Shown here: positions 1,648 to 45,281 of the stretch, one piece after another | Layout: the number at the start of each line of letters is the position of its first letter | How positions within the stretch are numbered: the stretch's first letter is position 1 | NCBI GenBank assembly: GCA_964360535.1 | Contig: CAYHXB010000001.1 | Coordinates: 1-56,950, forward strand | Reading direction: 5' to 3' | Length of the DNA stretch: 56,950 nt | Origin: an uncultured Candidatus Saccharibacteria bacterium | GTDB lineage: Bacteria; Patescibacteriota; Minisyncoccia; UBA6257; 2-01-FULL-56-20 | The notes under the pieces: generated by a model | The model's input: the letters and a program-made list of their open reading frames with translations, nothing else | Database searches by the model: none | What the model was told of the DNA's origin: nothing | Translations under genes and position numbers: made by a program

Positions 1648-3036
1648 ATGCTTCTTAAATTTTCCAAATTTTTTCTTTACGTTTCCGTATTCAGCGTCCT
1701 CATAGTAATGACTTCGACGTTTTTTCCGTTCATCGGCGGGAAAATGTATTTTTTCAGGGCAACAATCGAATTGTCGCTTATATTTCTTCTTTTCTGGTGG
1801 GGTTTTGAGGCTCCGGATGGCCATTTGTGGGCGCGTTGCAAGGAAATGTTCAAAAAGCCGCTCTTCGCGGCTGTTTCGGTTTTCGCCCTGGCTTTCACCC
1901 TGGCTTCGATTTTTGCTTTCGATTCGCACGCGGCCTTCTGGTCAAATTACGAGCGCGGTGAGGGTGGTTTCCAGATGCTTCATTTTTACGCTTTCTTTTT
2001 CCTTCTAGTTTTTCTTTTCAGGAATAAAAAGGATTGGGAAAGATTATTATGGACTTCCGTTTTTGCAGGCGTTGCCATGATACTTTACGGTGTCGGCGCA
2101 GCGGTTTTTGTGGTCAATCCGGACACCGGCGCTTTTTCAAATCCTTTCGGATTCGTCGGGCCGTACGCGACTCCTTCAAAGTTAGCGGCTTCTACTTTTT
2201 GGGGAAGGCTTTTTGATACTGAGCGTTTTCAGGGTTCGCTCGGTAACCCGGCTTACGTATCTCCATATCTTATTTTTTCCATTTTTTTCCTTTTATGGCT
2301 CTGGTTTTCCCAAAAAAGCAGGAATTTAGTCAAGAATATTTCCTACGGCGCGCTTAGTCTTTTCTTCATGGTATTTTTCTTTTTGGCGGCTACCAGGGGC
2401 GCGTTTGTTGGTCTGGCCGGCGCCGTGTTTGTTTTCCTGCTAGTTCTTGGCTTCGGACATATTAAAATAAGAAAATATGTTGGAGTCGGGATGGCCGTTT
2501 TGGCCATTATTCTAAGTTCACTTATTTATTATAGCCGCACTGATTTTGTAAAAAATCTGCCGGGTGGCCGCATGTTCGACCTTGGAGTGTCCGACCAGAC
2601 CTTCCAGACCAGACTTTGGACATGGAATTCGGCATGGCAGGGTTTTAAGGAGAAGCCGATTTTAGGGTGGGGCCCCGAGAATTTCTCAGCCGTTTTCGAC
2701 AAATATTTCGATACGAGGCACTACGTTCCTGGCAAAGGTTCAGAAACCTGGTTCGATTACGCGCATAGCGTCTTTTTTGACTATCTCGTTGAAACCGGAA
2801 TAATCGGATTCTTAAGTTTCCTCGGAATATTCGTGATTTTTTATCTGGAATGGTTTAGGAAACTGAAACATCAGAATCCGCTCTTTTGGGGACTTATGGC
2901 CGCGTTGCCTGTCAGTTATCTAATCCAGGGACTGGCGCTTTTCAACGTTTTTCCGATTTATATCAATTTATTTTTATTTCTGGCTTTCGCCTGCTACCAA
3001 CTTTATTATTCCGAACATAATTCTCCGCAATCATGA
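1648..3036 (+). CDS. O-antigen ligase/polymerase family (Wzy_C-type) polytopic membrane protein; paralog of 41557..42912
   Basis: 462-aa multi-TM ORF with 'LAATRGAFVGLAG' and 'ILGWGPENF' motifs. It shares long blocks with 41557..42912 ('RFQGSLGNP', 'GWGPENFS.VFDKYFDTR'). Confidence 0.75.
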   Translation: MLLKFSKFFLYVSVFSVLIVMTSTFFPFIGGKMYFFRATIELSLIFLLFWWGFEAPDGHLWARCKEMFKKPLFAAVSVFALAFTLASIFAFDSHAAFWSNYERGEGGFQMLHFYAFFFLLVFLFRNKKDWERLLWTSVFAGVAMILYGVGAAVFVVNPDTGAFSNPFGFVGPYATPSKLAASTFWGRLFDTERFQGSLGNPAYVSPYLIFSIFFLLWLWFSQKSRNLVKNISYGALSLFFMVFFFLAATRGAFVGLAGAVFVFLLVLGFGHIKIRKYVGVGMAVLAIILSSLIYYSRTDFVKNLPGGRMFDLGVSDQTFQTRLWTWNSAWQGFKEKPILGWGPENFSAVFDKYFDTRHYVPGKGSETWFDYAHSVFFDYLVETGIIGFLSFLGIFVIFYLEWFRKLKHQNPLFWGLMAALPVSYLIQGLALFNVFPIYINLFLFLAFACYQLYYSEHNSPQS

Positions 3037-3158
3037 ATCCCGTTAGAAACAACAATTCCATGAAATCAAAAAATATGTTTAATATTTCACACAAAAAGTC
3101 GTACACCACTCAAGCGGTTTATTCACGGTCGTCTTTGACGACCTGTTTCTAACGGGAT
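3037..3158 (+). repeat. Junction element copy 1: ~122 nt with 15-nt terminal inverted repeats (MITE-like or structured-RNA candidate)
   Basis: ATCCCGTTAGAAACA at 3037..3051 is the exact reverse complement of TGTTTCTAACGGGAT at 3144..3158. Internal hairpins lie at 3105..3118 and 3127..3143. Homologous copies lie at 36784..36906 and 44562..44683. Confidence 0.85.
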
Positions 3159-3786
3159 GAACAAGGACATAAAAAAAGCAGTTGCCGTTTCGATATCCAT
3201 TTTCCTGGCGCTGGTCGGTTATTATGGTTCTTATCTGCCGATGCAAAAGTCGATGCTTTTCATCACGGCCATGCAGAGGGCTGCCGGCATGAAAACCATA
3301 AACGACTTTGAGCAAAATTTTTCGATACCGCTTAATGTTCCTTCCCCGATAGGACAAGAAGAACTTGTGCGGAGCATGGCGAATACAATCGCCAACAGCT
3401 TCCAAAATGTTCCACAAAAAGAAGGCGTGGACGAATTGGTAAGATATGTGGAAAGTTACTTCAAACCTATAATTGACAGAAATAGGGGAATGAGTTTCGG
3501 CCAGGACATATACATTTTAGGGGCGATGAACGAATTCGCCTTCATTAAAACCGGAGACAAAAAATATCTGCAGGCAGCCGAGAATTATTTCAAGCGATCA
3601 GTTATTCTCGGTCCGAAACGCCCGCAGGGATTGTACGGTCTGCTTGATGTTTACAGAATGGAAGGAAACATAGAGGGATTTAAAATAACTGCCGAACAGA
3701 TTCTGTCGCAGTGGCCTGACGACGCGCGCACCAAGTCCGTTTATGACCAGTTCATGAAACTTGTTTCGCAGGATGCCAAGAAATAA
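3157..3786 (+). CDS. Hypothetical membrane-anchored protein with a TPR-like C-terminus; paralog of 42896..43489
   Basis: 209-aa ORF with one N-terminal TM helix. It shares 'SPIGQEE', '[11 protein letters not shown]' and 'WPDD' blocks with 42896..43489. Both copies follow a Wzy_C paralog. Confidence 0.6.
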
Positions 3787-25273: not shown

Positions 25274-25341
25274 CGTTTCGCCTATATAAAACAGGCGAAC
25301 GTTGCTGTGCTAAATTATACAGAAATTTATGGAAATGTCAA
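25274..25341 (-). promoter_or_regulatory. Consensus promoter plus conserved leader hairpin, copy 1 of a duplicated cassette
   Basis: On the minus strand: TTGACA (25341..25336), 16 nt, TATAAT (25319..25314). A leader stem follows: plus-strand segments 25293..25301 (AGGCGAACG) and 25274..25283 (CGTTTCGCCT) are complementary apart from one bulged T. The 36-nt stretch 25292..25327 is identical to 27026..27061. Confidence 0.7.
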
Positions 25342-25355
25342 ATTATGCGTTGGTA

Positions 25356-27012: not shown

Positions 27013-27075
27013 CGTTCTCCTAAAGCAGGCGAACGTTGCTGTGCTAAATTATACAGAAATTCGTTAAAATGTCAA
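27013..27075 (-). promoter_or_regulatory. Consensus promoter plus conserved leader hairpin, copy 2
   Basis: On the minus strand: TTGACA (27075..27070), 16 nt, TATAAT (27053..27048). Leader stem: 27027..27035 pairs with 27013..27021. Confidence 0.7.
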
Positions 27076-27099
27076 ACAACCTCGCCAATGGCGGGATTA

Positions 27100-34757: not shown

Positions 34758-35825
34758 ATGAAAATAATTTATACCGGCATACAATATTCTTTTTACAAGA
34801 AAAGCTACGGCCTTAGCTTTGAGCACAATAATTTTTATTTAAGCCTGAAGAACATGCCGGGAGTTGAAGTAATTTATCTGCCTTTTGACCGCATTCTTGA
34901 AGTCGGCAAAAAACGCTTCAACGAAGAACTTAAAGAAGCCATAGACCGCGAGCAGCCGGACCTGCTGTTTGTTTTCATGCTGACAGACGAGGTCAATATG
35001 GAACTCCTCGACGAAATAAGGAAAAAAGGAAAAATGAAAACGCTGGCCTGGTTTTCCGACGACACCTGGCGTTATTACAGCTATTCAAAGCAATGGGCCG
35101 CGCATTTTGACTGGACAGTTACAGTTTACGCCCAGCCATACCAATGGTATCTGAGAGACGGATTCAAAAACGTCATCTATTCGCAATGGGCGGCCAACGT
35201 AAAGCTTTACAGGCCTGCAAACACCAGCCGCAAAACGGACGTCAGTTTCATCGGTTCCTGGAATAAAGAACGTGGTCGGATAGTCGCCGACCTTGTCAAA
35301 AAAGGAGTTCCAGTTTCTTCATTCGGCGCCGGCTGGAAAACTGGACGGCTGAGCGAAAACGACATGATACGCCTTTTTTACGAAAGCAAAGTAAATCTCG
35401 GGATAAATTCTCCCAACGCGGACTTTTCAATCAAATCAATCGGCAAACTTTTTTTCAGGAGGAGCGTTGAAAAAATAGTTCCCGATTTTTGGCACTTCCC
35501 GAGAAATTTCCGCTCATGGCTTGTCGGCAGGAAAATTTCTCAGATAAAGGCGAGAATTTTCGAGATACCGGCCTGCGGCGGATTTCTGCTTACGGGAAAA
35601 GCCGACGATTTGGACAAATTTTTTGAAATAGGAAAAGAAATAGCAGTTTATGAAAAGCCGGAAGATATTCCGAAAATTGTCCGTTATTATCTTTCTCATA
35701 ATGAAGAAAGGGAGCGTATGGCCAAAGCCGGCTATGAACGCGTCATCCGCGATCACACTTACGAAAAAAGACTGGAAGAAATTTTCAAAAAAATCGGACT
35801 GGAAAATGCCCATGGAAATGAATAA
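34758..35825 (+). CDS. CgeB-family (DUF3880-type) glycosyltransferase-like protein
   Basis: 'RIFEIPACGGFLLTGKADDL' and 'AKAGYERVIRDHTYEKRLEEIF'. Confidence 0.6.
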   Translation: MKIIYTGIQYSFYKKSYGLSFEHNNFYLSLKNMPGVEVIYLPFDRILEVGKKRFNEELKEAIDREQPDLLFVFMLTDEVNMELLDEIRKKGKMKTLAWFSDDTWRYYSYSKQWAAHFDWTVTVYAQPYQWYLRDGFKNVIYSQWAANVKLYRPANTSRKTDVSFIGSWNKERGRIVADLVKKGVPVSSFGAGWKTGRLSENDMIRLFYESKVNLGINSPNADFSIKSIGKLFFRRSVEKIVPDFWHFPRNFRSWLVGRKISQIKARIFEIPACGGFLLTGKADDLDKFFEIGKEIAVYEKPEDIPKIVRYYLSHNEERERMAKAGYERVIRDHTYEKRLEEIFKKIGLENAHGNE

Positions 35826-36783
35826 AAAACCGCTAGTTTCAATTTTGATAACCGCATACAATGCCGAGAAATTCATAAAAACGGCGCTGGAGTCGGCTTT
35901 GAGCCAAACCTATCCGAATGTCGAAGTCGTTATCGTCAATGACGGTTCAACCGACGGCACGGCTGGCGTTATGAAGCCGTATCTTAAAGACAAAAAAATT
36001 ATTTATTTCGAACAGCCCAATGGCGGAATTTCCATAGCGAGAAACAAAGCCTTTGAATTGTCACGCGGCTACTATATTACTTTTCTGGATGCAGACGATT
36101 TTTATGCTCCGGATAAAATTGAAAAAGAAGCCGAATTTCTTGAATCAAGTCCTGATTACGGCGCCGTCTACTGCCGTGTTTTGAGTTTTTACGACGGAGT
36201 TCCCGAGACCATGTACGGATATGACCGGCCGATGCCGGAAGGAGACATTTTCCGCGAGCTCTTAAAACACCAGTTCATAAATCCCGGTTCCGTTATGATG
36301 CGGCGCGAAGTTTTCGCTTCCGAGAACGGATTCAATCCGGATTTCCGCGACGCCGAGGACTGGGATTTGTGGAGGCGCTTGGCTTATCGGGGCGTCAAGT
36401 TCGGTTTCGTGAACAAGCCGCTACATCACAACAGGATAAGCAGAGGAACCCTTTCCGGCTTTCATAATCAGGTGAAGATGAAGAAAATGAACCTGATAAG
36501 CTTTGAAAATCTTTTTTCCAGAATGACGGAAGAAGAAAGGGAAAAATATGGAGCAAAAAAAATCATCCGTCTGCTAAGAATAAAATTGGGCGTGGCGCAT
36601 CTGCTTCTTTCAGAAAAGAAACAGGCGTTGGCTCTTTTTAAAGAAGCTTCGCGCGGAAGTATTTGGGCGATTTTTTATCCGTTCATATTGTTTTTTGTTT
36701 TATTAATGCCCGGCGGCTTCATTTCCTGGACCATAAAGTTCTTTTGGCAACTCAAGCATAAGATGCTATTTTATAAGGAATGA
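35818..36783 (+). CDS. Glycosyltransferase family 2
   Basis: 'VSILITAYNAEKFI' and 'FLDADDF' (DxD). Alternative in-frame ATGs lie at 35806 and 35812. The C-terminus has TM helices. Confidence 0.8.
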   Translation: MNKKPLVSILITAYNAEKFIKTALESALSQTYPNVEVVIVNDGSTDGTAGVMKPYLKDKKIIYFEQPNGGISIARNKAFELSRGYYITFLDADDFYAPDKIEKEAEFLESSPDYGAVYCRVLSFYDGVPETMYGYDRPMPEGDIFRELLKHQFINPGSVMMRREVFASENGFNPDFRDAEDWDLWRRLAYRGVKFGFVNKPLHHNRISRGTLSGFHNQVKMKKMNLISFENLFSRMTEEEREKYGAKKIIRLLRIKLGVAHLLLSEKKQALALFKEASRGSIWAIFYPFILFFVLLMPGGFISWTIKFFWQLKHKMLFYKE

Positions 36784-36906
36784 ATCCCGTTAGAGACAAA
36801 CATTCAATGATTTGCAAAATATCCCATATATTAACTCTCAAAAAGTCGGTTGCCGTTCAAGCGGCTTATTTACGGTTGTCTAAAGACAACCTGTCTCTAA
36901 CGGGAT
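36784..36906 (+). repeat. Junction element copy 2
   Basis: TIRs ATCCCGTTAGAGACA (36784..36798) and TGTCTCTAACGGGAT (36892..36906). Hairpins at 36852..36865 and 36874..36891. Confidence 0.85.
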
Positions 36907-37963
36907 GAAAAGAGAGAAGATTTTAATAACCGGAGGAGCGGGATTTATCGGTTCTCACACGGCCGACGCGCTTTCAGAAAAGGGATATTCCGTAGTCATT
37001 CTGGACAATCTTCAGCCGCCGGCGCACAAGGGGCGTTGGCCGAAATACGTTTTGAACAAGGGATTCACGCTCATACGCGGAGATGTTCGCAAAAGAGAAG
37101 ATTTGCTCAAGGCGCTTAAGGGCGTTTCTTACGTTTATCATCTGGCGGCCTACCAGGACCAGCGGCCTGATTTCAGCAAATTCTTTCACACTAACACGGT
37201 CAGTTCCGCGATTATTTATGAATTGATCGTTGAAAAGAAGCTACCGGTCAAAAAGGTTATTCTGGCCAGCACGCAGTTTGCCTACGGCGACGGCGTTTAC
37301 CAGTGCAAACACAACGGAAAGTTTTTCTTCCCTGAGGTCAGGACCGAAAAACAATTCAAATCGAAAAAGTTCGACATACTTTGCAAACACGGCCAGCATG
37401 CAAAGTATTATCCGCTCCGCGAAGAACAGCAGCTGACGCCGACCAATGCATACGGCCTTTCTAAGGAAGCCATTGAGCGGCTGGCGCTCCGTTTCGGCAA
37501 AACCTATGGCATACCGACGACGCTTCTACGCTATTCAATAGTCCAGGGACCTAGGCAGTCGCCGCTTAATCTTTATTCCGGCGCCCTCCGCATATTCGTC
37601 ACGCAGGCACTTTCCGGAAAGCCGATTACCGTTTACGAAGACGGCAATCAGACGCGCGATTTCGTTAACATAAACGATGTCGTCGCGGCAAATCTGCTTG
37701 CCATGAAAAACAAAAAAACAAACTTCGAAATTTTCAATGTCGGAGGAGGAAAGGCCTTAAAAGTGGTTGATTTCGCGAAACTCGTCAAAAAAATAATTCC
37801 TACGAAGTCACAAATAGTAATCGGAGGATTCAGGAGAACCGACACACGCCACGCCGTATCAGATGTTTCAAAACTTAAAAAACTCGGCTGGAAGCCGAAA
37901 TTCACTCCCGAAAAATCCGTTAAGGATTACGCCGAGTGGTATCGGAGCGAATATGGCGCGTAA
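36905..37963 (+). CDS. NAD-dependent epimerase/dehydratase family SDR
   Basis: 'ILITGGAGFIGSHT', 'YGLSKEAIE' (YxxxK) and 'DGNQTRDFVNINDV'. Confidence 0.8.
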   Translation: MKREKILITGGAGFIGSHTADALSEKGYSVVILDNLQPPAHKGRWPKYVLNKGFTLIRGDVRKREDLLKALKGVSYVYHLAAYQDQRPDFSKFFHTNTVSSAIIYELIVEKKLPVKKVILASTQFAYGDGVYQCKHNGKFFFPEVRTEKQFKSKKFDILCKHGQHAKYYPLREEQQLTPTNAYGLSKEAIERLALRFGKTYGIPTTLLRYSIVQGPRQSPLNLYSGALRIFVTQALSGKPITVYEDGNQTRDFVNINDVVAANLLAMKNKKTNFEIFNVGGGKALKVVDFAKLVKKIIPTKSQIVIGGFRRTDTRHAVSDVSKLKKLGWKPKFTPEKSVKDYAEWYRSEYGA

Positions 37964-43531: not shown

Positions 43532-44551
43532 ATGATAGTAGTAAGAGCCCCGTTAAGAATAAGTTTTGTCGGAGGCGGAACGGATATCGGCGATTTTTAC
43601 CGCCAGCACCCGGGCCGCGTCATTTCCACGGCCATAGACAAGTTCGTCTACGTCGTCATAAACAGGACGCCTCTCATTCCGAAGGTGTCTGCGCGCTATT
43701 CCATTTCGGAAACTGTAGACAGACCTGACGACCTTCAGCATACCCGCATAAAAGCGGCTCTTTTGGATATGGGAATAGGAAAGGGAATAGAAATAGGTTC
43801 GTTTGCCAGTTTGCCGGCCAAGACCGGCCTTGGTTCGTCTTCGAGCTTTTCGGTAGCGCTTATGAAGGGATTGCACGCATTTAAAGGCAATAAACTGGAT
43901 AAGGGAGAAGCGGCCGAAGCGGCTTCCCGCCTTGAAATAGAACTTGTCGGTGAACCCATAGGCAAGCAGGACCAGTATGCGTCGGCTTTCGGAGGCCTTA
44001 ACGTCATCCAATTCAATGCGGACGAAAGCGTGGACGTTGACCCGGTTCTTTGGGACTACAAAAAACGCCTCGGTCTTGAAAACAGCATTTTGCTTTTTTA
44101 CACCGGTCTAACCAGATTAGCTTCAAGCGTTTTGACCGAGCAAAAGGCCAATATAGCTGTAAGCAATAAATTCGAAACTATGAAAGAGATGGCAAATTCC
44201 GTCCATGATTTCAGAGACGTTCTTCTTACTGGTGATTTTAAGAAGTTGGGAGAAATGCTTCATGAGGGCTGGCTCAAGAAAAAGACATTGGCTTCAAATG
44301 TTTCCAATTCTACAATTGATGATCTTTATAATGCCGGAATTAATGCCGGGGCTTGGGGCGGAAAAGTTCTTGGAGCGGGCGGAGGAGGATGCGTAATGTT
44401 CATTGGCCCGGAAGACAAAAAGCCGGTGATCCGCGAAGCCATTTCAAAAGTAGCCAAGGGAAAAAATCTAGATGAGTTCCGGGAAATTCCGATAAAATTC
44501 GTCCAGTCCGGAGCCGAGATAGTTTTCAATAGCGACGAAATAAGCAGATAA
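43532..44551 (+). CDS. hddA: GHMP kinase, D-glycero-alpha-D-manno-heptose 7-phosphate kinase-like
   Basis: 'RAPLRISFVGGGTD' and 'PAKTGLGSSSSFSVAL'. It lies in an operon with gmhA, gmhB and hddC. Confidence 0.75.
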   Translation: MIVVRAPLRISFVGGGTDIGDFYRQHPGRVISTAIDKFVYVVINRTPLIPKVSARYSISETVDRPDDLQHTRIKAALLDMGIGKGIEIGSFASLPAKTGLGSSSSFSVALMKGLHAFKGNKLDKGEAAEAASRLEIELVGEPIGKQDQYASAFGGLNVIQFNADESVDVDPVLWDYKKRLGLENSILLFYTGLTRLASSVLTEQKANIAVSNKFETMKEMANSVHDFRDVLLTGDFKKLGEMLHEGWLKKKTLASNVSNSTIDDLYNAGINAGAWGGKVLGAGGGGCVMFIGPEDKKPVIREAISKVAKGKNLDEFREIPIKFVQSGAEIVFNSDEISR

Positions 44552-44561
44552 TAAAAAATGA

Positions 44562-44683
44562 ATCCCGTAAGAAACAACAATTACATGGAATCCAAAAATA
44601 TGTTAAATATCACACATAAAAAGTCGTCCACCGCTCAAGCGGTTATTCACGATTGTCTAAAGACAATCTGTTTCTAGCGGGAT
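44562..44683 (+). repeat. Junction element copy 3
   Basis: TIRs ATCCCGTAAGAAACA (44562..44576) and TGTTTCTAGCGGGAT (44669..44683). Hairpins at 44630..44643 and 44651..44668. Confidence 0.85.
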
Positions 44684-45281
44684 GAAAGACTTTATCAACG
44701 AATTTTCGAAAAAATCTATAGTGGCTATAGAAAACCTACCACATGATGAAATAGCCAAGGCGCTTAATGTTTTGCAGGGGGTTTATGAAAACGATGGGCG
44801 TGTCTATGTCTTTGGAAATGGAGGCTCGTGGGCCATTGCTGGACACTGGGTGACGGATTTCAATAAAACAGTTTTCAGTAATCATCTTGATCAGCACAAC
44901 CGCCGTTTCATGGTTAGCCGTATTCCCGCAAGTGAAGAGGAATTAACCGCATGGGCGAACGATATTGGTTACGATATGGTATTCGCGGGGCCGTTGGAAA
45001 ACGTTCTTGAGGACGGTGATGTTGTTATTGCAATATCAAGCTCCGGCAATTCAAAAAATATTATCAATGCCGTAGAGGTAGCTAAAAAGCATAAAGTTCC
45101 CGTCATAGGGCTTTCTGGATTCGACGGCGGAAAACTTAACCAGCTTGCCGACATAAAAATACTCGTGCCGACTCCGAAAGGGGAATACGAAGTAGTGGAA
45201 AGCACGCATGACACGATGATGCACTTGATGACAAAGTACTTCAAGAATTATTTCGACCATTTAGTGGAGACGAAAAAATAA
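44682..45281 (+). CDS. gmhA: SIS-domain phosphoheptose isomerase
   Basis: 'VYVFGNGGSWAIAGH' and 'VVIAISSSGNSKNI'. Confidence 0.8.
   Translation: MKDFINEFSKKSIVAIENLPHDEIAKALNVLQGVYENDGRVYVFGNGGSWAIAGHWVTDFNKTVFSNHLDQHNRRFMVSRIPASEEELTAWANDIGYDMVFAGPLENVLEDGDVVIAISSSGNSKNIINAVEVAKKHKVPVIGLSGFDGGKLNQLADIKILVPTPKGEYEVVESTHDTMMHLMTKYFKNYFDHLVETKK

Follow-up and report, generated by a model that had tools for sequence, protein, structure and literature searches.

The stretch analysed here, hereafter the window, is a stretch of 56,950 nucleotides (nt) of a contig from an uncultured Candidatus Saccharibacteria bacterium, and window coordinates are counted along it. Three copies of a short repeat, which we call the junction element, lie on its plus strand, each in the junction between two genes. 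They measure 129-130 nt including the pentamer ATGAA found at both ends, and in the repeat analysis of the window they are single, not tandem. Each copy has two terminal inverted repeats, whose pairing forms a closing helix, two internal hairpins (A and B) and an open reading frame (mini-ORF) that begins at the left ATG (Table 1). In copy 1 the TGA stop of the Wzy_C/O-antigen-ligase-like gene is inside the left ATGAA, and a 209-aa ORF begins at the right ATG. A first-pass annotation had reported paired substitutions in three helices of these copies, and every coordinate and base that it gave for them was correct.

Table 1. The three junction elements of the window, their parts and the adjoining genes.
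Feature	Position	Strand	Remarks
Copy 1, with both ATGAA pentamers	3033..3161	+	
Copy 1, upstream Wzy_C/O-antigen-ligase-like gene	1648-3036	+	TGA stop inside the left ATGAA
Copy 1, downstream 209-aa ORF	3157-3786	+	Begins at the right ATG
Copy 1, left ATGAA, duplicated target pentamer	3033..3037	+	Holds upstream TGA (3034-3036) and mini-ORF ATG
Copy 1, 5' terminal inverted repeat	3037..3051	+	ATCCCGTTAGAAACA; 5' strand of the closing helix
Copy 1, hairpin A	3105..3118	+	ACCAC-TCAA-GCGGT, one A:C mismatch; subfamily-specific
Copy 1, hairpin B	3127..3143	+	GGTCGTC-ttt-GACGACC; adjoins the 3' repeat
Copy 1, 3' terminal inverted repeat	3144..3158	+	TGTTTCTAACGGGAT; internal TAA (3150-3152) ends the mini-ORF
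Copy 1, right ATGAA	3157..3161	+	Start codon of the downstream gene
Copy 1, stop-free mini-ORF	3033..3152	+	39 codons, MNPVRNNNS...TTCF; stop 7 nt 5' of the downstream ATG
Copy 2	36780..36909	+	Coordinates of the first-pass finding
Copy 2, upstream family-2 glycosyltransferase gene	35650-36783		TGA at 36781-36783
Copy 2, downstream NAD-dependent epimerase gene	36905-37963		
Copy 2, left ATGAA	36780..36784	+	
Copy 2, 5' terminal inverted repeat	36784..36798	+	ATCCCGTTAGAGACA
Copy 2, hairpin A	36852..36865	+	GCCGT-TCAA-GCGGC, one T:G pair
Copy 2, hairpin B	36874..36891	+	GGTTGTC-taaa-GACAACC
Copy 2, 3' terminal inverted repeat	36892..36906	+	TGTCTCTAACGGGAT
Copy 2, right ATGAA	36905..36909	+	Epimerase gene start codon; TGA (36906-36908) ends the mini-ORF (ATGA overlap)
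Copy 2, stop-free mini-ORF	36780..36908	+	42 codons, MNPVRDKHS...SLTG; stop overlaps the downstream ATG
Copy 3	44558..44686	+	
Copy 3, upstream GHMP-kinase gene	43532-44551		TAA 9 nt 5' of the left ATG
Copy 3, downstream SIS-domain gene	44682-45281		
Copy 3, left ATGAA	44558..44562	+	Does not serve as upstream stop
Copy 3, 5' terminal inverted repeat	44562..44576	+	ATCCCGTAAGAAACA, one private change
Copy 3, hairpin A	44630..44643	+	ACCGC-TCAA-GCGGT
Copy 3, hairpin B	44651..44668	+	GATTGTC-taaa-GACAATC
Copy 3, 3' terminal inverted repeat	44669..44683	+	TGTTTCTAGCGGGAT, one private change; TAG (44675-44677) ends the mini-ORF
Copy 3, right ATGAA	44682..44686	+	Start codon of the SIS-domain gene
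Copy 3, stop-free mini-ORF	44558..44677	+	39 codons; gene-caller protein P0001 in a public NCBI record

Further copies were collected from public data. Scanning a genome collection and a metagenome collection with a strict pattern internal to the element gave 5 new copies on three distinct contigs (a pattern built on the inverted repeats would have reached more families), and scans with internal patterns placed copies in a Patescibacteria metagenome-assembled genome (MAG; L005), a Paceibacterota MAG (L006) and metagenome contigs (L008-L010). The predicted mini-ORF peptides were then used as bait in a protein collection, where five called mini-ORFs were found, which led to loci L011-L013 and 4 more copies. 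Profile and covariance-model searches of all loci collected yielded 15 distinct copies of this family (family 1) on at least 7 contigs and, besides them, one orthologous copy in decay (L034 7222-7329), a sister family represented by two copies (family 2; L010 6297-6434 and L008 5368-5503) and a short G+C-rich variant (L008 3771-3846) that was spotted through a weak partial nhmmer match. Counts given below over 18 elements refer to all loci collected, three of the elements being those of the window. The contigs that carry the copies belong to metagenomes (Hainich groundwater and others) and to MAGs of Patescibacteria, and the hosts are Patescibacteria (Paceibacteria and Liptonbacteria relatives). 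Searching the window against Rfam 15 gave no match at the gathering threshold and only far sub-threshold noise at an E-value threshold; IMG/VR gave 0 matches to a pattern with both inverted repeats and 14 to one with a single repeat, all of them chance, repeat-only matches, and the plasmid and phage collections held no real match to the element. A full-text literature search found no report of MITEs (miniature inverted-repeat transposable elements) in Patescibacteria, and to our knowledge no such family has been described there.

Each insertion adds 121-126 nt. The terminal inverted repeats are 15 nt long (ATCCCGTTAGARACA), almost invariant in their outer 11 nt and perfect in 9 of 14 copies, a set that leaves aside the L038 copy; in the sister family they reach at least 20 nt. 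The element carries no transposase gene, its sole ORF consisting of 39-44 non-conserved codons with no Pfam match. The target pentamer (A/T)TGRA stands on both sides. Most copies have it as ATGAA; L006b has ATGGA at either end, and the short variant is flanked at both ends by TTGA. The left pentamer overlaps the upstream stop codon as ATGA (window copies 1 and 2) or lies 4-29 nt 3' of it, and the right ATG opens an ORF of 71-681 aa in 15 of 17 copies, the exceptions being L012 and the short variant. The left pentamer retains the original upstream context of the gene or overlaps the upstream stop, and it is at the right pentamer that the host gene has its working start codon. All 18 elements are co-directional with the flanking genes, and 17 are situated at a start codon, 16 exactly and one at the mutated ATAAA of L012. 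About 35% of the long ORFs of the window begin with ATGAA, and about 10% of its ATGAA pentamers are at ORF starts; that surviving copies are found almost only at start codons, despite the few pentamers located there, points to selection on which copies survive. As a separate observation, in L012 the right pentamer (2326-2330) has changed from ATGAA to ATAAA, by which the downstream start is lost while TAA still ends the mini-ORF, and the next called gene begins 205 nt beyond it.

Filled and empty orthologous sites were compared at four junctions in syntenic relatives with 79-84% protein identity. Upstream of pheS, the empty site of L039 and L040 reads ...AAAC ATGGA AA..., and the filled site of L037 reads ...AAAC ATGGA-element-ATGGA AA.... 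The junction from pheS to pheT is empty in L040 and filled in L037, and that from S18 to PAP2 is empty in L034 and filled in L030. The junction from pheT to the gene of the CCA-adding enzyme is empty in L039 and L040, and it is filled at the same ATGAA by family 1 in L038 and by family 2 in L037, two families having inserted independently at one start codon. The genes downstream of the elements are unrelated in function (epimerase, SIS-domain protein, ssb, PAP2, pheS, pheT, CCA-adding enzyme and one gene located 3' of an ABC substrate-binding-protein gene). Taken together, the pentamer duplication, the inverted repeats, the small size, the dispersal next to unrelated genes and the site occupied by two families argue for a MITE-like element with a preference for (A/T)TGRA. 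Transposition is inferred only from this anatomy and from the site polymorphism, and we assign a probability of about 0.7 to the junction element being a non-autonomous, MITE-like mobile DNA element of Patescibacteria.

The window copies fold far better than dinucleotide shuffles of the same sequences (z = -5.6 to -6.9, with 0 of 200 shuffles equal). The compensatory changes described by the first-pass annotation were recovered base by base: the closing helix contains AGAAACA/TGTTTCT in copy 1 and AGAGACA/TGTCTCT in copy 2, with one T:G pair and one A:A mismatch in copy 3, and two stem positions of hairpin B are altered only as pairs across the three copies. After more copies had been gathered, the covariation was retested on the same three helices in an alignment of 14 copies (A5), with shuffled columns and slid partners as controls, and it was kept in the closing helix and hairpin B. 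Over the three helices, paired cells amounted to 90.7%, compared with 83.9% in column shuffles and 34-42% when partners were slid by 1-3 columns; pairs with changes on both sides numbered 12, compared with 6.6 +/- 1.6 in the shuffles, none of 500 of which reached 12. The closing helix had 95.7% of its cells paired, with outer 11 positions that hardly vary among the 14 copies and covariation at positions 12 (A-T or G-C), 13 (A-T or G-C) and 14 (C-G or T-A); its stems include AGAGACA/TGTCTCT, AGAAACA/TGTTTCT, AGAGGTA/TACCTCT and AGAAGC/GCTTCT. Hairpin B is present in 13 of the 14 copies, always directly adjoining the 3' repeat and with TTTACG just 5' of it. Five of its seven positions have changed on both sides, and each of the arms GGTCGTC, GGTTGTC, GATTGTC, GGTCGCT, GGTCGTT and GGATGCGCT has a matching partner arm, the last belonging to a wholly different 9-bp stem of L013a (GGATGCGCT/AGCGCATCC). 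Hairpin A holds as a feature of part of the family only: it is found with its TCAA loop in the three window copies, and its form ACCGC-TCAA-GCGGT is limited to one subfamily, about 7 of 15 copies, with 70% of cells paired. Another pairing that was considered, between the AAAAAGTCG box and the 3' arm of hairpin B, showed no covariation and was rejected. The covariation is that of the inverted repeats of a mobile element plus one internal hairpin, and it is uninformative on strand; covariation between the arms of an interspersed repeat is not, by itself, evidence for a functional host RNA.

It had been argued in the first pass that the T:G pairs, acceptable as G-U in RNA, favoured a structured plus-strand transcript over a DNA hairpin, and this was not borne out. 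Single-sided changes were 3 G:T/T:G to 2 A:C/C:A in the closing helix, 2 to 1 in hairpin B and 4 to 2 in hairpin A, that is 9 to 5 in all, a difference without significance (P ~0.2 in a one-sided binomial test). At the outer pair of hairpin A, which changes between A-T and G-C, both intermediates occur (A:C in L005a, G:T in L006a), and the single mismatch noted in hairpin A of copy 1 is an A:C, which would be G-U on the minus strand and so cuts against the argument. The minus strand of the window copies folds as well as the plus strand or better. With no strand asymmetry and both strands able to fold, the case for a plus-strand RNA fails.

The distribution of the changes among copies was also considered. 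Each uncompensated change is confined to a single copy; of the compensated ones, judged against the copy tree, most are common to groups of copies or subfamilies. The L034 copy at the S6-ssb junction, orthologous to that of L005a, has lost its left repeat and most of hairpin B. The private uncompensated changes, together with this decayed copy, would be expected of a pairing that is selected during propagation and relaxed after insertion, which suggests that selection acts while the element spreads rather than in place for the host. In two of the three helices, pairing is kept while the sequence changes. As a mechanism, the element itself would require its paired ends and hairpin B when it is copied or moved: the folded DNA (or RNA) would be the substrate of a transposase supplied in trans, the pairing would not be needed by the host in place, and new copies would inherit compensated stems from a source copy and later decay by single-sided mutations. 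We lean towards this element-level need during propagation as the cause of the covarying helices.

The alternative that survives best, although we consider it unlikely, is a cis-acting structured RNA selected by the host within the operon transcript, for instance a coupling or processing element or a site for RNase III, folded on the plus strand. It would account for the real covariation of the closing helix and hairpin B and for the fact that all copies are co-oriented with genes and lie within likely transcripts. Moreover, the closing helix and the adjoining hairpin B would form a quasi-continuous helix of ~22 bp that buries the downstream AUG; transcribed Correia repeats are substrates of RNase III, and a helix of this size may suit that enzyme. 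However, besides the lack of asymmetry between G:T and A:C and the folding of the minus strand, the flanking genes do not form a regulon, being functionally unrelated, and the element is absent from the same junctions in close relatives. The private nature of the uncompensated changes, against the sharing of most compensated ones, does not fit an RNA maintained in place, and neither does the old orthologous copy of L034, which lacks the left arm of the closing helix. Hairpin A is lacking in half of the copies, and no Rfam family matches.

A clearly less probable alternative concerns how the element moves. If an HUH/Y1 transposase of the IS200/IS605 type moved it as single-stranded DNA, in the manner of palindrome-associated transposable elements (PATEs), the insertion would lie 3' of ATGRA, so that the duplication would be only apparent, the right end of the element closing with its own copy of the pentamer and hairpin B being the subterminal hairpin bound by the protein. 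The strict asymmetric target and the strict orientation agree with this, as do a hairpin B conserved in structure and not in sequence near one end, with the conserved TTTACG 5' of it, and the one copy whose pentamers are not identical (ATGAA and ATGGA). Nevertheless, IS200/IS605 elements are not known to have terminal inverted repeats, and here they are perfect over 15-24 nt; the conserved hairpin is near the right end only, with none near the left; and in L037 the left pentamer reproduces the ATGGA, a non-consensus sequence, of the empty site. The collected loci, which were not systematically screened, showed no TnpA. We rejected an IS200/IS605-derived PATE on the inverted repeats, the hairpin at a single end and the left pentamer that tracks the target.

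We also examined the reading frames that cross the element. In 13 of the 18 elements, the decayed L034 copy and one copy of family 2 among them, no stop interrupts the frame of the left ATG until it is within 7 nt of the regenerated ATG, and the open mini-ORFs end either with the TAA that the right repeat contains (-7) or with the TGA of the ATGA on the right (+1). In the central region, stops number 7, 29 and 23 in frames 0, 1 and 2, those of frame 0 being confined to 4 copies. The right end (CTCTAACGGGATGAA) holds TAA, TGA and ATG in three different frames, and copies of 126, 127, 129 and 130 nt all finish in one of the two stop frames. With a period divisible by 3, the peptide would become fused to the host protein; three copies have such a period, all with internal stops. 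When the element was reversed in silico, 0 of 15 copies remained open, and the co-orientation of all 18 elements would be explained by the closed frame that reversed copies would have. In a neutral simulation that follows the copy tree, 5-6 of 15 copies were expected to be open and 11 were observed (P = 0.02-0.09, according to the root); the simulation ignores indels and is therefore conservative. Beyond the level of the DNA the peptides are not conserved, and their frame shifts between copies through indels.

A reading as a small protein-coding gene (39-44 aa, MNPVR...) flanked by inverted repeats by chance would fit the frame open in 13 of 18 elements and the five such ORFs annotated by gene callers in public data. 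It seems to us very improbable: past MNPVR, which the inverted repeat encodes, the peptide is no more conserved than the DNA, indels change the frame so that the C-terminus is ...TTCF, ...SLTG or ...ATCL, and the paired changes of the stems alter residues freely. The peptides have no Pfam match, and only 5 relatives appear among 5.8 billion protein clusters.

The open frame is suggestive of a relay mini-ORF, from which ribosomes would pass to the host gene. Once the element is inserted, the gene is cut off from the initiation context that it had before, and this context now drives the left ATG. The right ATG lacks a Shine-Dalgarno sequence, and the predicted fold places its A and U in a 15-bp helix; within the element, no promoter, terminator or Shine-Dalgarno sequence was found that is consistent across copies, although hairpin A or B is in some cases scored as a weak terminator. 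Ribosomes starting at the left ATG, or terminating at the TGA overlapping it, would translate the stop-free mini-ORF, whose sequence would be unconstrained, and their passage would melt the closing helix that otherwise buries the right AUG. Termination at the TAA (-7) or at the TGA of ATGA (+1) would then be followed by re-initiation on the host gene, which would make the insertion nearly harmless. Translation of the host gene is probably still possible after insertion, and we give the relay as a whole an even chance. Translational bypassing of the T4 gene 60 type was rejected, as the right end does not repeat the codon that precedes the stop. More tentatively still, these traits may define a class of MITE that has evolved to be translationally transparent, by homing to start codons through (A/T)TGRA, regenerating the codon, carrying a relay mini-ORF and a three-frame right end by which every ribosome crossing the element would reach the host gene, and making downstream translation strictly dependent on the relay through the covarying closing helix.

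Several points weigh against a mobile element with a relay frame. The pentamers of L005b differ, ATGAA on the left and ATGGA on the right, and the length of the duplication can be given only as 2 to 5 nt, since the repeat ends overlap the pentamer. An autonomous partner or transposase with repeats ATCCCGTTAGAG...CTCTAACGGGAT was not found in the window and ~300 kb of related loci, the wider scans having used element-internal patterns. Covariation of two arms could arise through arm-to-arm correction, without selection for pairing. As for the mini-ORF, five elements (L005b, L006b, L010a, L013a and L010c) have premature stops, the closed copies include each of the three with a period divisible by 3, and openness is only moderately significant once shared ancestry is allowed for.

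The possibility that the element is an integron attC-like site, or another site-specific recombination site that marks cassette boundaries, is the least credible and was rejected. Copies do stand at successive gene junctions (three in 5.2 kb of L013), and the element is an imperfect palindrome of the 57-141-nt class with GTTAGAG and CTCTAAC resembling attC core sites; but attC cores run from RYYYAAC at the 5' end to GTTRRRY at the 3' end, the inverse of the order seen here on both strands (GTTAGAG 5', CTCTAAC 3'), the neighbours are syntenic housekeeping operon genes such as rpsF-ssb-rpsR and pheS-pheT, and the insertion is exactly at a start codon with a duplicated pentamer (no search was made for intI).

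The sister family shares with family 1 the outer ends ATGAATCCC...GGGATGAA and the ATGAA flanks, and its inverted repeat (ATCCCACACATAAC...) extends for at least 20 nt. Its copy in L008 (5368-5503, minus strand) is the same as L037 12407-12542; the inner parts of the repeats differ between the two copies (AAGGAT/ATCCTT and TTGCAC/GTGCAA), and the mini-ORF is open in one of them. The short variant (L008 3771-3846, minus strand; the same as L037 14062-14141) has 76 nt, the inverted repeat ACCCCATTAGAGGC/GCCTCTAACGGGGT and TTGA on both sides, and it is located at TTGAAG in an intergenic spacer, off annotated start codons, at a site that is empty in L040 and L038. A different imperfect-palindrome repeat of ~110 nt (GTAATCAGCATAAATCCGCAAAAATCAGCATGAATCAGCG...) was seen in L036 (644-759 and 1558-1670) at the S6-ssb and S18-PAP2 junctions, the same that are filled by the ATCCCGTTAGAG element in L005/L030, and several repeat families may have a hot spot at these junctions. 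Related families number at least three, with inverted repeats ATCCCGTTAGAG, ATCCCACACATAAC and ACCCCATTAGAGGC; together with the unrelated repeat of L036 they hint at a wider habit in Patescibacteria.

Other features were noted in the window and in the relatives. Between the ORF at 22-1545 and the Wzy-like gene (1648-3036), the window holds a 97-nt A+T-rich imperfect palindrome (1545-1641) with 48-nt arms that are 75% complementary; it may be a terminator or a further junction repeat. Two intergenic regions separated by 1.7 kb hold the copies, 91% identical, of a direct repeat of 56 nt (TAAAACAGGCGAACGTTGCTGTGCTAAATTATACAGAAATT...; 25287-25342 and 27021-27076). L037 (12047-12400) and L038 (3386-3720) have in common, between pheT and the element, ~330 nt that are absent from L039 and L040, with a G+C-rich hairpin (GCGCCCCTCTCGTTGCCGAGAAGGGCG) at the start and a called ORF of 61-66 aa on the opposite strand. 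Between pheS and pheT, L038 (1077-1445) and L039 (9630-10004) have an ORF of 122-124 aa that is absent from L037 and L040. At the empty pheS-pheT site of L040, pheT was called from an internal TTG and misses the start ATGAAATTTTCT that aligns with L037. The LepA homologue of L037 (4489-6753, 754 aa) has a PDDEXK_3 nuclease-domain match between two GTP_EFTU matches and its orthologue in L039 (4873-6681, 602 aa) has no PDDEXK_3 match; judging from the sequence, it looks like a nuclease domain inserted into the GTPase domain.

Genomes of Patescibacteria are tiny and gene-dense, and the element, if it does target the start codon while leaving the gene expressible, would show how selfish DNA can settle in operons with almost no intergenic space. 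If it is also translationally transparent, elements of this kind could spread within very small genomes, where operons are tightly packed. Coupling of termination to reinitiation over ~125 nt of structured RNA would likewise find a natural test case in it. In practical terms, the mini-ORFs of 39-44 codons are currently annotated as hypothetical proteins, and the starts of downstream genes near such junctions can be miscalled, as in pheT of L040.

By comparison with known systems, the anatomy of the junction element appears closest to that of transcribed bacterial MITEs (Correia, ERIC), and its logic closest to that of the mycobacterial interspersed repetitive units (MIRUs). The Correia or nemis repeats of Neisseria and the enterobacterial repetitive intergenic consensus (ERIC) or intergenic repeat unit (IRU) sequences (the latter of about 127 bp) are, like the element, sequences of ~105-160 bp with terminal inverted repeats and a short target duplication, present in many dispersed intergenic copies with presence/absence variation and no transposase of their own. 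Transcribed together with the genes next to them, they form long RNA hairpins; the ends of the element would likewise form a stable stem when transcribed. Correia and ERIC families duplicate TA, and they occur at variable distance from genes and in both orientations, whereas the element has the target (A/T)TGRA, a start-codon position in 17 of 18 cases, one orientation in 18 of 18 and one frame free of stops, and it has no sequence similarity to the Rfam, plasmid or phage collections.

MIRUs are short intergenic repeats in polycistronic operons, with short direct repeats and empty orthologous sites, and their small ORFs overlap the stop and start codons of the flanking genes, for which translational coupling has been proposed (Supply et al. 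1997, as summarised in PMC3184786). The ATGA overlap of the element at its left end (copies 1 and 2) and at its right end (copy 2) resembles this arrangement; otherwise the mini-ORF stops 7 nt before the ATG, and the resemblance is functional only. MIRUs differ in that they are of 40-100 bp, often tandem as variable number tandem repeats (VNTR), with imperfect inverted repeats and in Actinobacteria, whereas copies of the element stand singly, with perfect 15-nt inverted repeats, a conserved internal hairpin, a pentamer target and hosts among Patescibacteria, and homology between the two is unlikely. Neisseria REP2 and the inverted-repeat elements of Borrelia supply a promoter and a ribosome-binding site as well as an ATG to the downstream gene (PMC3184786). 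The element is similar to them in lying directly 5' of genes, giving a working ATG and having internal stem-loops, but it lacks a consistent promoter or Shine-Dalgarno sequence, and its ATG is a duplicate of the host's own start codon. The Rickettsia palindromic elements (RPEs) insert in frame into protein-coding genes and join the host protein; they share with the element the condition of palindromic mobile repeats that survive since translation can run through them, whereas the element forms a mini-ORF of its own, apart from the host ORF, and its copies of fusion length carry stop codons. The element differs from these systems in the start-codon pentamer used as target, the strict orientation, the perfect repeats with a covarying inner part, the conserved hairpin B and the host phylum.

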